Shown in pieces: positions 4,309-13,585 of a stretch of DNA of 24,507 bases. Origin of the DNA: Minisyncoccota bacterium (lineage in GTDB: Bacteria > Patescibacteriota > Minisyncoccia > Phycocordibacterales > SBAW01). The DNA lies in contig DATCEW010000084.1 of the NCBI GenBank assembly GCA_036509865.1, forward strand, positions 1 to 24,507, in the 5' to 3' direction. Position 1 is the first letter of the stretch. The number at the start of each line of letters is the position of its first letter. Below the pieces are notes generated by a model. The model had not been told where the DNA came from, made no database searches, and saw only the letters and a program-made list of their open reading frames with translations. The translations under genes were made by a program, and so were the position numbers.

Positions 4309-4336
4309 ATTATATAGGCACGTTTAGTTTTGTCAA
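4309..4336 (-). promoter_or_regulatory. Consensus sigma70 promoter of the TrmB-like gene
   Basis: Minus strand TTGACA (4336-4331), N16, TATAAT (4314-4309); ATG 4299 lies 9 nt downstream. Confidence 0.8.
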
Positions 4337-4417
4337 ACAACATTTACAGAAATACGTAGCAAAATAGCCATAAAATGCCTTATTTTAAGTAGTATTTGTC
4401 AAACTATGTTTTGTATG

Positions 4418-4445
4418 TTGACATTATATTTTATTGGCGTATACT
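4418..4445 (+). promoter_or_regulatory. Near-consensus sigma70 promoter driving the accessory island
   Basis: TTGACA (4418-4423), N16, TATACT (4440-4445); predicted TSS about 4451-4452. Confidence 0.8.
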
Positions 4446-4451
4446 TTTGTC

Positions 4452-4901
4452 ATATCCTTATTGCGAGTACCGGAGGGATGCCGGAAAAGAGGAAAGAGGA
4501 TGGTCTCTGACAACAGAATAGGTGATAAGGAAAAACGCAGAACAATCTGTGCTTCGGCGCAAACTGCATCGAGTTGGGTTAATAACAGTAACCCCGAGAA
4601 TGTGCGTCTCCTATGAATTCGAGCTCGGCTCGCATAGGAAGACAGACGCACCCTCAAAAACCGAGTAGAACCTCGGCCTGTAACCCTCATCGCAATGGTG
4701 AGGTGCGGAATGGAGCTCCGCGGGTGTGCGCAGCCCAAAGTTGCTGGTGGCGAGATGTGGCGTACGCGTCGCATCACAAAAGCCAAACCAGAACAGCTCC
4801 GTGTTTTCTCCCCGACCAGCTCTCTGCGATGCAGATTGAGCGGTCGGGGATTCTATTCAACTCGCGAACAAGCTTGCGACTGTGCAAGAATTCGTGAGTT
4901 G
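4452..4901 (+). ncRNA. Large structured RNA / 5' leader of unknown family
   Basis: About ten stems found by eye, e.g. 4455-4464/4522-4531, UUCG hairpin 4548-4561, 4602-4651, 4744-4791, 4809-4850, 4858-4901. G-U wobbles are consistently on the + strand. No convincing CDS. Confidence 0.6.
4856..4901 (+). repeat. Island hairpin element, copy A
   Basis: TTCAACTCGCGAA...TTCGTGAGTTG, 11-bp stem 4858-4868/4891-4901, followed by AAGGAG at 4910-4915. Confidence 0.8.
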
Positions 4902-4921
4902 TTCGAATCAAGGAGATGGTC

Positions 4922-5287
4922 ATGGAAAAAATCCTCAACCTGACGCAACACGCCGCCACTGCCGAGCAAATCGCGGCCGGTGTCGTCGAACCTGCTGACA
5001 AGATTGTGGTGCAAGCGCTTCTCACGTTTGAGGAGTTGCCCACCGCAGGCGAAATCAAAAGACGCGCGAGGTCGCTCTCCGAGTTTGCAGCTACGAGCGG
5101 CTGCAAGACCGCGATGATCGGCGGTGCACCGTTCTTTATGGGGCCACTTGAATATGCGCTTGCGACGGCGGGGATAAAAGCCCTCTATGCGTTCAGCAGA
5201 CGCGAAACCGTCGAGGAAAAACTCCCCGATGGTGGTGTGAAGAAGACGCAAGTCTTCCGCCATGCCGGGTTCGTGTCGACCTTTTAA
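4922..5287 (+). CDS. Small Csx20/CARF-like protein, putative cyclic-oligoadenylate ring nuclease or binder
   Basis: ILNLTQH.AT.EQ, AMIGGAPF, and C-terminal G...LYAFSRRE.VEE..PDG.VKK..VFRH.GF, which resembles the Csx20 pattern as recalled (VY.TT.R.S.E...DG...K.S.FKH..F). SD AAGGAG; start 4922 (alternative 4916). Confidence 0.5.
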   Translation: MEKILNLTQHAATAEQIAAGVVEPADKIVVQALLTFEELPTAGEIKRRARSLSEFAATSGCKTAMIGGAPFFMGPLEYALATAGIKALYAFSRRETVEEKLPDGGVKKTQVFRHAGFVSTF

Positions 5288-5301
5288 AACGACACATGGT
5301 T

Positions 5302-5330
5302 AGGGCGAGCCAAAAATCGCCCTCTTTCTT
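5302..5330 (+). terminator. Terminator-like hairpin after the Csx20-like ORF
   Basis: AGGGCGA (5302-5308)/TCGCCCT (5317-5323) followed by the interrupted tract CTTTCTT. Confidence 0.45.
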
Positions 5331-5354
5331 CAACTCGCAAATGGTTGTGAGTTG
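5329..5354 (+). repeat. Island hairpin element, copy B (minimal)
   Basis: TTCAACTCGCAA-ATGG-TTGTGAGTTG, 10-bp stem 5331-5340/5345-5354, then GGAG at 5366-5369. Confidence 0.8.
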
Positions 5355-5375
5355 ATTGAGATTTTGGAGATGCCC

Positions 5376-5573
5376 ATGATGAATAGGCCCGCAACTGCGC
5401 TGGAGCAACTCCGGCAGCGGCAAGGAACGCAAACTCTAAAACGGCTCATCTACAGATGCGTCGGCCGAGAAGAGATCGCGCTTGCCGCGCGACGCTACCG
5501 GAGGTATCTTCCCAAGCTCGATTTCAGTCGAGACGATTGGAAAGATCAGATCCAAAACTTGCCCGATTCATAA
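5376..5573 (+). CDS. Small basic hypothetical protein (65 aa)
   Basis: GGAG 6 nt upstream of ATG 5376; flanked by elements B and C; no recognisable motif. Confidence 0.6.
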   Translation: MMNRPATALEQLRQRQGTQTLKRLIYRCVGREEIALAARRYRRYLPKLDFSRDDWKDQIQNLPDS

Positions 5574-5585
5574 TCGGGCCTCTTA

Positions 5586-5633
5586 TTCAGCACATGATGC
5601 ATATTGGCGAATTGGTCGCCACACCGTGTGCTG
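5586..5633 (+). repeat. Island hairpin element, copy C
   Basis: TTCAGCACATG...CGTGTGCTG, 9-bp stem 5588-5596/5625-5633, inner TGGCGA/TCGCCA stem, then AGGAG at 5636-5640. Confidence 0.75.
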
Positions 5634-5648
5634 CTAGGAGTTCTTACC

Positions 5649-6089
5649 ATGGAACACGAACGCCTTGCAGGAAAACCCTTCGTGCTCATTGAAACAAATG
5701 AGGAAGGGGCCCTACGCGTCATTGATATCGGCGCACACATCGCCGAGAAGTACGGCGACAAAACGCTTGGTGCTCTCTATGAGTTCGCATCGCGCCGCCG
5801 GATCGCTTTTGCGAAAGCGAAAAAAGCGATCATCAAACGCCTCGGCCGTAAGCCTGTCATGGGCTCGGACGAGTGGGCAAGCTCGGAAGAACACCGGGTG
5901 TTGCAAGAGGTTCCTGCTCTCGGCCTTAGTGGCACGCACATAAAGCGGGCCGGCCCTTTGGACATGAAATTGTCCGAATGGGTCAAGGGGTGGCATGGCG
6001 GTTGCCTCGGCAAGTATGACCGCGAGGTCATCAAGGCTCTCGTCGCAACAACGGGTGACGAGACGGCCGCGCTTTTATTGTCGAGTTAG
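5649..6089 (+). CDS. Hypothetical protein (146 aa)
   Basis: AGGAG 8 nt upstream of ATG 5649 (MEHERLAGK...). The ORF-track start at 5604 falls inside hairpin C. Confidence 0.7.
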   Translation: MEHERLAGKPFVLIETNEEGALRVIDIGAHIAEKYGDKTLGALYEFASRRRIAFAKAKKAIIKRLGRKPVMGSDEWASSEEHRVLQEVPALGLSGTHIKRAGPLDMKLSEWVKGWHGGCLGKYDREVIKALVATTGDETAALLLSS

Positions 6090-6099
6090 TCTCGGCATT

Positions 6100-6135
6100 G
6101 GCGAACGCATGTAGTTTACTTCTACCGCGTTCGCC
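6100..6135 (+). terminator. Strong hairpin after the 146-aa ORF (no U tract)
   Basis: Perfect 9-bp GGCGAACGC (6100-6108)/GCGTTCGCC (6127-6135) with inner GTAG/CTAC. Confidence 0.4.
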
Positions 6136-6141
6136 CCCTCA

Positions 6142-6187
6142 TTCAGCACATCGTCCACGCTGCGATCGTCGCAAGCTGGTGTGTTGA
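6142..6187 (+). repeat. Island hairpin element, copy D
   Basis: TTCAGCACATC...GGTGTGTTGA, 10-bp stem 6143-6152/6178-6187, then AGGAG at 6189-6193. Confidence 0.75.
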
Positions 6188-6201
6188 TAGGAGAAGACCA
6201 A

Positions 6202-6390
6202 ATGACCGAACTCGAGATTATCTGCGAGATCACCAAGATCATTCGGATCCGTGATTCTCGGGTGTCTCTTGTGGATGGAATTGCGCGTGCAAAGCGCGTG
6301 ATCGAGTCCCCTGAGGAGCTCGGGCTCCTCTGCAAAGAGACGTTCGAGTTTATTCGCGAGATCGAACGCAGAAACCGCACCGGGCGGTAA
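6202..6390 (+). CDS. Small hypothetical protein (62 aa)
   Basis: AGGAG 8 nt upstream of ATG 6202 (MTELEIICEITK...). Confidence 0.6.
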   Translation: MTELEIICEITKIIRIRDSRVSLVDGIARAKRVIESPEELGLLCKETFEFIREIERRNRTGR

Positions 6391-6535
6391 ACTCGGGACA
6401 TTCTTTTGCGGTCCAAACGCAAGAGAGACGCCAATTCTTTTTGGCTTGAGCGGGGATCCGAAAGGGCGAGACCGCAAAAAAGATGGGACAATCTCTGCCC
6501 ATACCAAGTGAGATGTTGTTCTTTAGGAGGATGCA

Positions 6536-6688
6536 ATGAAAATCACTCTGCAAACCGTGCGGCCCATCAATGTGGCCGCCAAGGCTCTCGCACAGGGGCA
6601 GTTTCGCCCGCAAATTGTGCGAGACAAGAAAAAGTATTCCCGCAAGGGACGCCAATCCTCGATGCGAAAATTCGAGGACTCTATTTAG
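6536..6688 (+). CDS. ArfA-like (alternative ribosome-rescue factor-like) basic peptide, 50 aa; not in the ORF track
   Basis: AGGAGG 5 nt upstream. MKITLQTVRPINVAAKALAQGQFRPQIVRDKKKYSRKGRQSSMRKFEDSI resembles the ArfA core N....L....FR..V...KK...Y.RK but lacks the full KGKGS motif. Confidence 0.55.
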   Translation: MKITLQTVRPINVAAKALAQGQFRPQIVRDKKKYSRKGRQSSMRKFEDSI

Positions 6689-6729
6689 CTCGCGAGCATG
6701 CTTGCAACAATGCAAGAGTTCGTTAGTTG
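6684..6729 (+). repeat. Island hairpin element, copy E (41/50 nt identical to copy A, ungapped)
   Basis: TTTAGCTCGCGAG...TTCGTTAGTTG, stem 6686-6696/6719-6729; overlaps the TAG stop of the ArfA-like ORF. Confidence 0.8.
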
Positions 6730-6735
6730 ATTGAG

Positions 6736-7122
6736 TCAACCAACCAATTTTGAGTTTTTTTCAAGCCACGCGGCTATATCTGCGATAGAAGTTTTTTCCA
6801 CCACAAAATGCACCATCGAATCCTCAATATCTTTTTGGTCAAAAAAGGTTTTATACTCATTTTGCTCGAGTATATACACCGCTGTTATAAACGCCGTACG
6901 TTTATTGGCGTCTACAAACACATGATTGCGCGCGAGGCTCTCGAGCGTTGCGGCTGCTTTAGTAAATAAGTTTGGGTACATCTCGGTGCCTCCAAACCCT
7001 GCATACGGTCGTGCGGTGCACATCTCTAAAGCACCGGCGTCACGCAAGCCGCTTGATCCGCCCGTTTGGCGCAACACCACCTCATGCAGGCGGATAATAT
7101 CCTCAGCAGTAGGGAAGGTCAT
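6736..7122 (-). CDS. doc: Doc/Fic-family type II toxin (death-on-curing)
   Basis: Doc motif NHVFVDANKRTA, N-terminal H....GG..G.RD.G.LE...ARP; 128 aa. Confidence 0.92.
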   Translation of the reverse strand: MTFPTAEDIIRLHEVVLRQTGGSSGLRDAGALEMCTARPYAGFGGTEMYPNLFTKAAATLESLARNHVFVDANKRTAFITAVYILEQNEYKTFFDQKDIEDSMVHFVVEKTSIADIAAWLEKNSKLVG

Positions 7123-7364
7123 TATTTGTCTTTGAGCGCCTCAAGTGCAGGGCGGTAACGCTCGACAGCCTCCTCGGCCCACGCCACGAGCTTTGCATTG
7201 CCGGCACTCTTTTTAGCGGCAGGGGCCTTTTTTTCAACAATAAAACGCCCAGCCTCTCTTGTTACAGAGATTATGTCACCCGCAAAAAAACCTTCCTCAC
7301 GTGCATCTTTTGCAGGGAGTACCACGCTTATAGAGCTGCCTACTTTGAGTATTTTTTGATCCAT
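7122..7364 (-). CDS. AbrB/MazE-fold antitoxin cognate to Doc
   Basis: KILKVGSSISVVLP...EEGF..GD.ISV AbrB pattern, C-terminal ERYRPALEALKD; TAATG stop/start overlap with doc. Confidence 0.88.
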   Translation of the reverse strand: MDQKILKVGSSISVVLPAKDAREEGFFAGDIISVTREAGRFIVEKKAPAAKKSAGNAKLVAWAEEAVERYRPALEALKDK

Positions 7365-13538: not shown

Positions 13539-13585
13539 AGGAGAGTGGTATTATTCTTTGGTGATTAACTTTACTATGCGCGTTT

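Follow-up and report, generated by a model that had tools for sequence, protein, structure and literature searches.

Five copies of a conserved hairpin, A to E, separate the small genes of an array on contig DATCEW010000084.1 of a Minisyncoccota bacterium (Patescibacteria; assembly GCA_036509865.1), of which the window analysed here covers positions 1 to 24,507. The copies are a divergent subtype of a genus-wide two-hairpin module, composed of a variable GC-rich hairpin (hp1) and, just 3' of it, a conserved hairpin (hp2) to which A-E correspond. Probably, this module is a form of RNA punctuation: it would separate cistrons, direct a long transcript towards cutting and stabilisation, and possibly expose translation starts. 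The array is the apparent body of one transcription unit, and its sequence suggests a strongly transcribed, hypervariable accessory operon, laid out as a promoter, a leader and repeated units of hp1, hp2, ribosome-binding site and open reading frame (ORF). The module is undescribed, as we found neither an Rfam family nor a paper for it. An earlier reading of the DNA letters alone, hereafter the original prediction, had proposed that a conserved, covarying structural element delimits unrelated cargo genes, and the results below support this. The genome of the window (G000) is an assembly of 562 kb in 84 contigs that is 85% complete. It was compared with 80 genomes of its genus (G labels) and with related loci and metagenomic contigs (L labels).

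A degenerate pattern spanning both arms of the hairpin matched the entire G000 genome five times, at 4856-4901, 5329-5354, 5586-5633, 6142-6186 and 6684-6729. All five matches are on the + strand within one 1.9-kb stretch, and they are the copies that the original prediction had listed. The reversed pattern had no matches in G000, and 200 shuffles of the window contained none either. The cores are 26-48 nucleotides (nt) long with fold z-scores of -2.7 to -4.3, and their predicted stem is the one originally given. Beyond that stem, past a small internal loop, the copies also have an outer helix of 4 bp. In an alignment of the five copies (A1), scored with the stem and the outer helix together, 94.3% of the cells are paired, versus 30-39% when the partner is slid by 1-3 columns. 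Changes on both sides were found at 7 of 15 pairs, and the covariation score was reached by none of 500 shuffles, which bears out the compensatory differences originally read in the arms. A covariance model built from A-E (R2) found those five copies alone in G000. A 68-nt direct repeat with 79% identity brackets the array, and copies A and E form its two ends. There is no U tract in hp2.

Each of the five copies is directly preceded by hp1, which the original prediction had missed. Taking G000 and its relatives together, hp1 abuts hp2 in 46 of 48 copies. The hairpins of the window are located as follows.

4809-4850, + strand: hp1-A, GC-rich, abutting element A.
4850-4908 (core 4856-4901), + strand: hp2-A with its outer helix, found by pattern, fold, A1 and R2.
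5302-5323, + strand: hp1-B, a GC-rich hairpin before element B.
5323-5361 (core 5329-5354), + strand: hp2-B, the shortest copy, with a 4-nt loop.
5561-5579, + strand: hp1-C, overlapping the stop codon of ORF2.
5580-5640 (core 5586-5633), + strand: hp2-C; the AGGAG ribosome-binding site of ORF3 forms the 3' strand of its outer helix.
6100-6135, + strand: hp1-D, a GC-rich hairpin before element D.
6136-6193 (core 6142-6186), + strand: hp2-D, whose outer helix overlaps the ribosome-binding site of ORF4.
6656-6678, + strand: hp1-E, within the final codons of ORF5.
6678-6736 (core 6684-6729), + strand: hp2-E, which begins at the stop codon of ORF5 and ends the array, with no + strand ORF beyond.

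Copies A-D lie 15-21 nt before a start codon, each with a GGAG-type ribosome-binding site, and B-E lie 41, 12, 52 and -5 nt from the preceding stop codon, much as the original prediction had described. In the predicted folds of modules A-D, pairing in or around the module takes in the start codon of ORF2 and, for ORF1, ORF3 and ORF4, the ribosome-binding site. While hp1-B and hp1-C pass a loose terminator scan, hp1 is followed by just 2-3 consecutive U, compared to 6-7 at genuine terminators of the lineage. It therefore looks more like a 3' protective hairpin or a weak terminator than a stop.

At the gathering threshold, Rfam had no match on the window (hammerhead, twister, pistol and hatchet included), and at E-values up to 5 there were two chance-level matches, both off the elements. 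Across the window and 20 related loci Rfam detected tRNAs only, except for hammerheads in other loci. The original prediction had likewise recognised no described family. Our literature search returned no paper that deals, for these bacteria, with integrons or attC arrays, with hammerheads or with cassette hairpins, and none describing the hp1-hp2 element. A scan of the window for tRNA and transfer-messenger RNA genes found none, which rules out such a gene as the insertion site of the array. Four other candidates were rejected. Clustered regularly interspaced short palindromic repeats (CRISPR) have repeats of 23-47 nt and non-coding spacers of ~26-72 nt, whereas the units between our copies are 250-560 nt long and protein-coding. 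Dispersed repeats, either repetitive extragenic palindromes and bacterial interspersed mosaic elements (REP/BIME) or similar to miniature inverted-repeat transposable elements, do not fit five copies in one 1.9-kb array in G000 and one cluster per subtype in relatives. An internal promoter in hp2 would have a -10 element at constant spacing, of which there is none, and a site for a dimeric protein on double-stranded DNA does not agree with an arm spacing that ranges from 3 to 35 nt.

The module recurs in the genus. In the relatives, the conserved hairpin measures ~45 nt, has the consensus CCCTTTCAAGCTCTTGA, loop, TCGAGnnTTTGAAAGGGG, and comes directly after the variable GC hairpin. Over 21 copies, the 17-bp helix of this hairpin is 94.7% paired with seven double-changed pairs, and its score is reached by none of 500 shuffles. 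In 13 of 14 related islands, a covariance model of this subtype (R1) identified sense-strand copies, 43 in all. Copies were found in 30 of the 80 genus genomes, each time clustered at a single locus. R1 left the G000 copies on the window undetected at E-values up to 1; the G000 subtype is thus separate and required its own model. This model, R2, identified clustered same-strand copies in 12 other genomes of the genus. Tallying both models, one or both subtypes are present in 38 of the 80 genomes, clustered at one or two loci. The original prediction had staked its claim on a covariance model finding additional copies, and the relatives contain them. Across the rest of the order, R1 had five weak single matches in 150 genomes, and at the sensitivity of R1 the element family is essentially genus-level. 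An exact-pattern scan of all species genomes with the relatives' consensus resulted in about chance-level matches in unrelated phyla and is uninformative on distribution.

Islands with these elements occupy two hot spots, one beside TrmB and the other between a pilB-like ATPase gene and tpiA. TrmB-side islands were found in G000, G017 and several metagenomic contigs. Islands between pilB and tpiA, consisting of a leader and small + strand ORFs, are present in 12 of the 15 genomes with the leader core and measure 1 to >6 kb. In these 12 relatives they have their own promoter, leader, cassettes and a conserved terminator tail, and they close with a long hairpin and a genuine tract of 6-7 U, a canonical terminator. 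The gap between pilB and tpiA in G000 is 48 nt (13539-13585) and represents the empty form of this second hot spot. The subtype of the element tracks the island and not the cargo: MJ1673 genes are accompanied by R1-type copies in L078, but by G000-type copies in G000, L079 and L081.

Several observations distinguish the two strands of the element. The helix of the relatives keeps two positions as G.U, in 17 and 20 of the 21 copies, respectively. Among the 48 copies from G000 and its relatives there are 118 G.U versus 31 A.C, and the mean folding energy is -22.7 kcal/mol for the sense strand and -16.3 kcal/mol for the antisense strand. The sense strand is the more stable one in 44 of the 48, and under R1 the ORF strand outscores the other by ~20 bits at each site. 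These comparisons favour a folding strand that is transcribed with the ORFs, most simply as RNA. The copies are always co-oriented with the ORFs and lie downstream of a strong promoter.

In several related arrays, the position of hp2 is taken by a ribozyme. Type III hammerheads were matched in 11 of the 80 genus genomes, one above the Rfam threshold and the others at 27-41 bits. The four hammerhead alignments that were printed have complete GUC, CUGAUGAG and CGAAAC cores. The hammerheads of G011, G084 and G086 contain CUGAUGAG and CGAAA in their sequence, and several of those in the genus have long stem II insertions. In G011, which has an R1-type array, the hammerhead (L036, 1292-1346, - strand) directly follows an hp1-type hairpin and is itself followed by a ribosome-binding site with its ORF. 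In G084, which has a G000-type array, it (L088, 2193-2235) also stands right after an hp1-type hairpin and ends the array before a second promoter and leader. Both are on the same strand as the hp2 copies. Hairpin-abutting hammerheads were also found in G069, G033 and G086 (L096-L100 are further hammerhead loci), and G030, G079 and G086 have hammerheads 1-3 kb from hp2 copies on the same contig and strand. One homologous cassette of ~70 amino acids is followed by hp1 and hp2 in G029 and L081, by hp1 and a hammerhead in G011, and by a plain terminator in L080. Type II hammerheads had no match in the genus, with control genomes equally blank, so that this search is uninformative. At L088 2300-2700 of G084, a second promoter and a second leader core indicate two arrays in tandem.

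Clustered hammerheads that flank variable genes in prophages were described by Perreault et al. 2011 (PMC3088659), who read them as cutting long transcripts into gene-length mRNAs. As hammerheads hold the hp2 slot in the arrays studied here, hp2 stands where a known RNA-cutting element can stand, and it most likely marks transcript cutting and not integron capture. The original prediction had left two mechanisms side by side. Its RNA-processing or stabilising role gains from the sense-strand bias and the hammerhead slot, while its integron-like logic loses from the lack of a linked integrase, the lack of an attC core and junctions that shift.

We propose that the long transcript would be cut at or beside hp2, most likely by a double-strand-specific or structure-guided endoribonuclease of the host. 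RNase III (on contig 24) and RNase Y are both encoded in G000, and hp2 has the irregular helix of about two turns within a polycistronic transcript that is expected of an RNase III-type site. Upon cleavage, hp1 would be left as a protective 3' hairpin on the upstream RNA, and hp2 or its 3' half would become a structured 5' end of the downstream RNA. Cleavage would also free the ribosome-binding sites and start codons that are paired in the uncut module. In addition, the module flanking each cassette may supply short conserved homology for the exchange of cassettes between arrays.

Several observations weigh against this punctuation reading. First, a search for sequencing runs holding the locus listed two DNA runs from peat and none of RNA. 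Also, hp2 is a plain helix from which a cleavage site is unreadable. In the predicted masking of ribosome-binding sites, the pairing partner changes from copy to copy, and chance may account for it. No ORF follows element E, and a role purely as a 5' untranslated region would thus not suit all copies. Base identity kept in the helix would suit a DNA-binding recombinase equally with an RNase or an RNA-binding protein. Finally, the hammerheads were examined in detail in seven arrays only.

The arrays are truly modular. Island length and content vary widely between species at the same site, and the same ORF families are found at different positions. One two-gene block lies right after the leader in G024, and after another cassette in G103 and G036. 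The leader hairpin and an element have similar 3' ends, and just past these the homology between G024 and G103 sets in. Two strains from metagenomes, with 98.7% identity over 2.4 kb, part exactly within an element, just past its conserved 5' motif. Changes in gene content exactly at the element, which the original prediction had suggested looking for among relatives, are thus seen even between near-identical strains. Around the ORF1 homologue P0056 there are only two distinct arrays, which limits the recent exchanges examined to one. Most simply, exchange between arrays would use short homologies offered by the conserved modules, the leader and the tail.

An unlikely but wider interpretation of this turnover is that the module is the junction signal of an integrase-less cassette system peculiar to ultra-small bacteria, with the leader RNA as its platform. 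In one variant, hp2 would be self-cleaving or RNase-guided and the cut ends would move cassettes, through RNA or short homology. In the other, this hairpin would be both an RNA-processing site and a folded-DNA recombination site.

We consider it quite unlikely that the element is an attC-like site, where folded single-stranded DNA of hp2, or of hp1 and hp2, is recognised by a recombinase and cassettes are excised and inserted as in integrons. The recombinase could be a single housekeeping Xer-type enzyme (compare the CTX-phage hairpins), with the terminal hairpin of the leader in the role of attI. Much of the modularity described above would follow: one conserved element joins unrelated ORFs, arrays between the same core genes range from 1 to >6 kb, cassettes recur at differing positions, and array content varies between close relatives as it does in integrons. 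The divergence of the two strains within the element and the start of G024/G103 homology after the 3' ends of leader hairpin and element also agree with such a site. Toxin-antitoxin genes lie in or beside the arrays, and chromosomal integrons carry them too. However, there is no integron integrase, as the sole PF00589 match of G000 is on contig 47 and not on the contig of the window. A Xer-like gene is present in 79 of the 80 genus genomes, usually as a single copy and irrespective of any array. The R''/R' core is likewise absent: only copy A fits RYYYAAC and none fits GTTRRRY. The 3' sides GTTGTTC, GTTGATT, GCTGCTA and GTTGATA misfit the latter motif, and the consensus of the relatives is CCCTTTCAAG...TTTGAAAGGGG. 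With 26-48 nt, the copies are below the length of attC sites (~57-141 nt). An attC site also has an unpaired central spacer and conserved extrahelical bases, whereas the helix of the relatives runs unbroken for 17 bp and keeps no bulge. Some junctions are in the 5' arm, others past the 3' end or ahead of hp1, so that there is no single crossover point. Moreover, the coding strand is the better-folding strand, and hammerheads, which act on RNA, occupy the same slot. From sequence features, membership of the array among integrons is not supported.

It is decidedly improbable that the module acts without any cleavage, as a translational or stability operator in which hp2 is bound by a protein or masks the ribosome-binding site and hp1 is a mere exonuclease barrier. 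The 3' arm or outer helix does overlap the ribosome-binding site in C, D and several relatives, in A and B the ribosome-binding site or the AUG is taken up in closing helices, and the distance from hairpin to start codon in G000 is near constant, as given above. Yet no ORF follows element E or the terminal copies of relatives, the next start codon in relatives is anywhere from 7 to ~90 nt away, and a hammerhead in the same slot indicates cutting over binding.

New classes of ribozymes were formerly discovered by searching beside known ones, and hp1-hp2 has the position and flanks of the hammerheads. Base identities and the two G.U pairs are also kept beyond the needs of pairing. Still, a new self-cleaving class replacing the hammerhead is very doubtful, because nearly all conserved bases are within an ordinary helix, no internal loop, junction or pseudoknot is conserved, and helix irregularities differ between the two subtypes. 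We give hardly any credence to the modules being intrinsic terminators or attenuators that are overridden by the leader RNA through processive antitermination: hp1 is GC-rich and followed by a pyrimidine-rich tract, with two copies passing the terminator scan, and the conserved structured leader is the only part common to all arrays, but the U tracts after hp1 are short and the conserved hp2 is left unexplained.

The punctuation reading can be compared to known systems. Like the prophage hammerheads (PMC3088659), the elements are RNA elements between single genes or short blocks of changing identity, and the hammerheads of the genus share arrays and the exact slot with hp2. Conversely, hp2 has no hammerhead core and no Rfam ribozyme match, it is always fused to a preceding GC hairpin, and the stretches examined contain no prophage genes at the locus. 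Integron arrays and clusters of attC sites lacking integron integrases (CALINs) also have one promoter, strain-variable content, toxin-antitoxin genes close by, and small, co-oriented, promoterless and mostly orphan genes bounded by an imperfect hairpin repeat. Our arrays differ from them in having no intI, no RYYYAAC/GTTRRRY motifs, shorter sites, no fixed crossover, a coding strand that folds better, and ribozymes that may replace the repeat. The intercistronic RNase III sites of phage T7, and selective processing and stabilisation of operon RNA, provide another likeness: an irregular helix of ~17-20 bp between the cistrons of one transcript, which leaves a 3' hairpin on the upstream mRNA and where a cut can unmask a ribosome-binding site. 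At hp2, we infer cleavage, the sequence is kept across unrelated cargo and species, and hp1-hp2 belongs to a hypervariable locus that has a leader RNA of its own. The REP/BIME of enterobacteria are palindromic repeats between genes whose folding in the mRNA protects the cistrons before them, and they are scattered genome-wide in hundreds of copies. In contrast, the hp1-hp2 element is in one array per genome only.

The remaining features of the operon in the window are the following.

4418-4445, + strand: near-consensus sigma-70-type promoter, TTGACA, 16 nt, TATACT (11 of 12 matches).
4452-4808 (~400 nt), + strand: structured leader RNA without a convincing ORF, fold z-score -5.6.
4922-5287, + strand: ORF1, an MJ1673/Csx20-like small protein (PF27247 in precomputed matches).
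5376-5573, + strand: ORF2, cargo, an orphan protein of 65 amino acids.
5649-6089, + strand: ORF3, cargo, an orphan protein of 146 amino acids.
6202-6390, + strand: ORF4, cargo, an orphan protein of 62 amino acids.
6391-6535, + strand: spacer of 145 nt between ORF4 and ORF5, with hairpins but no hp2 (z-score -1.5, no R2 match).
6536-6688, + strand: ORF5, a basic peptide of 50 amino acids (DUF7230), ArfA-like by eye.

The related islands are headed by the same type of promoter. The leader, which has no Rfam match, is the sole component common to all arrays (related loci L029-L042). Its 5' core (~4496-4568) is 81-96% identical in seven relatives, and the core pattern, GGTCTCTGACAAC...ATAG, is single-copy in 15 of the 80 genus genomes. 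In the relatives, the leader ends in a long covarying hairpin (...TGTTGTTCCTCGT...ACGAGGGATCGCA) with six compensatory pairs and several invariant G.U pairs.

The five ORFs have no significant similarity to one another, in line with the original description of the units as unrelated. The cargo overall includes the Csx20-like protein, the ArfA-like peptide and small membrane proteins. Matches of ORF1 to Csx20 are weak, and the MJ1673 family has >1,600 homologues. No CRISPR locus is in view, and in the four contexts that were read the MJ1673 gene belongs to an island of this type, located either next to TrmB or in the pilB-tpiA gap. ORF4 and ORF5, with no hp2 in their spacer, may be one two-gene cassette. 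Homologous cassettes of ORF5 were found in L079 (5485-5640), L081 (6135-6290) and G072. By its motif (...RDKKKYSRKGR...), ORF5 appears to resemble the ribosome-rescue peptide ArfA; a PDB sequence search with ORF5 had no ArfA match. The ORF5 homologue in L079 and L080 has no stop codon and continues in frame into the next ORF, and in L081 the hairpin has a U tract. In proteobacteria, an arrangement like this, with the hairpin in the final codons, yields a truncated arfA mRNA. This suggests that ORF5 may be expressed from a truncated, non-stop mRNA, which, along with the predicted pairing of ribosome-binding sites, is a further hint at an RNA role of the module.

Upstream of the array, the opposite strand encodes TrmB, ClpP and RNase Y (984-2513). 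The divergent promoter region between TrmB and the leader contains two TTTGTCAAAC-type 17-mers (4329-4345 and 4395-4411), candidate operators through which TrmB may control the array. At 6736-7364, the - strand encodes a Doc/Fic toxin and a MazE/AbrB-type antitoxin, whose genes converge on the end of the array. The island in L078 holds a HicB antitoxin gene, and toxin-antitoxin genes accompany such variable loci.

The locus provides a defined, testable sequence signal for the expression and reshuffling of fast-changing small accessory genes in genome-reduced, uncultured bacteria. The element family and the leader RNA are candidates for new RNA family models. Sharing its slot with hammerheads makes hp2 directly assayable as a new RNase recognition element or ribozyme. 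If it is true that the exchange of cassettes exceeds homologous recombination, this would be a cassette system built upon an RNA-processing signal.

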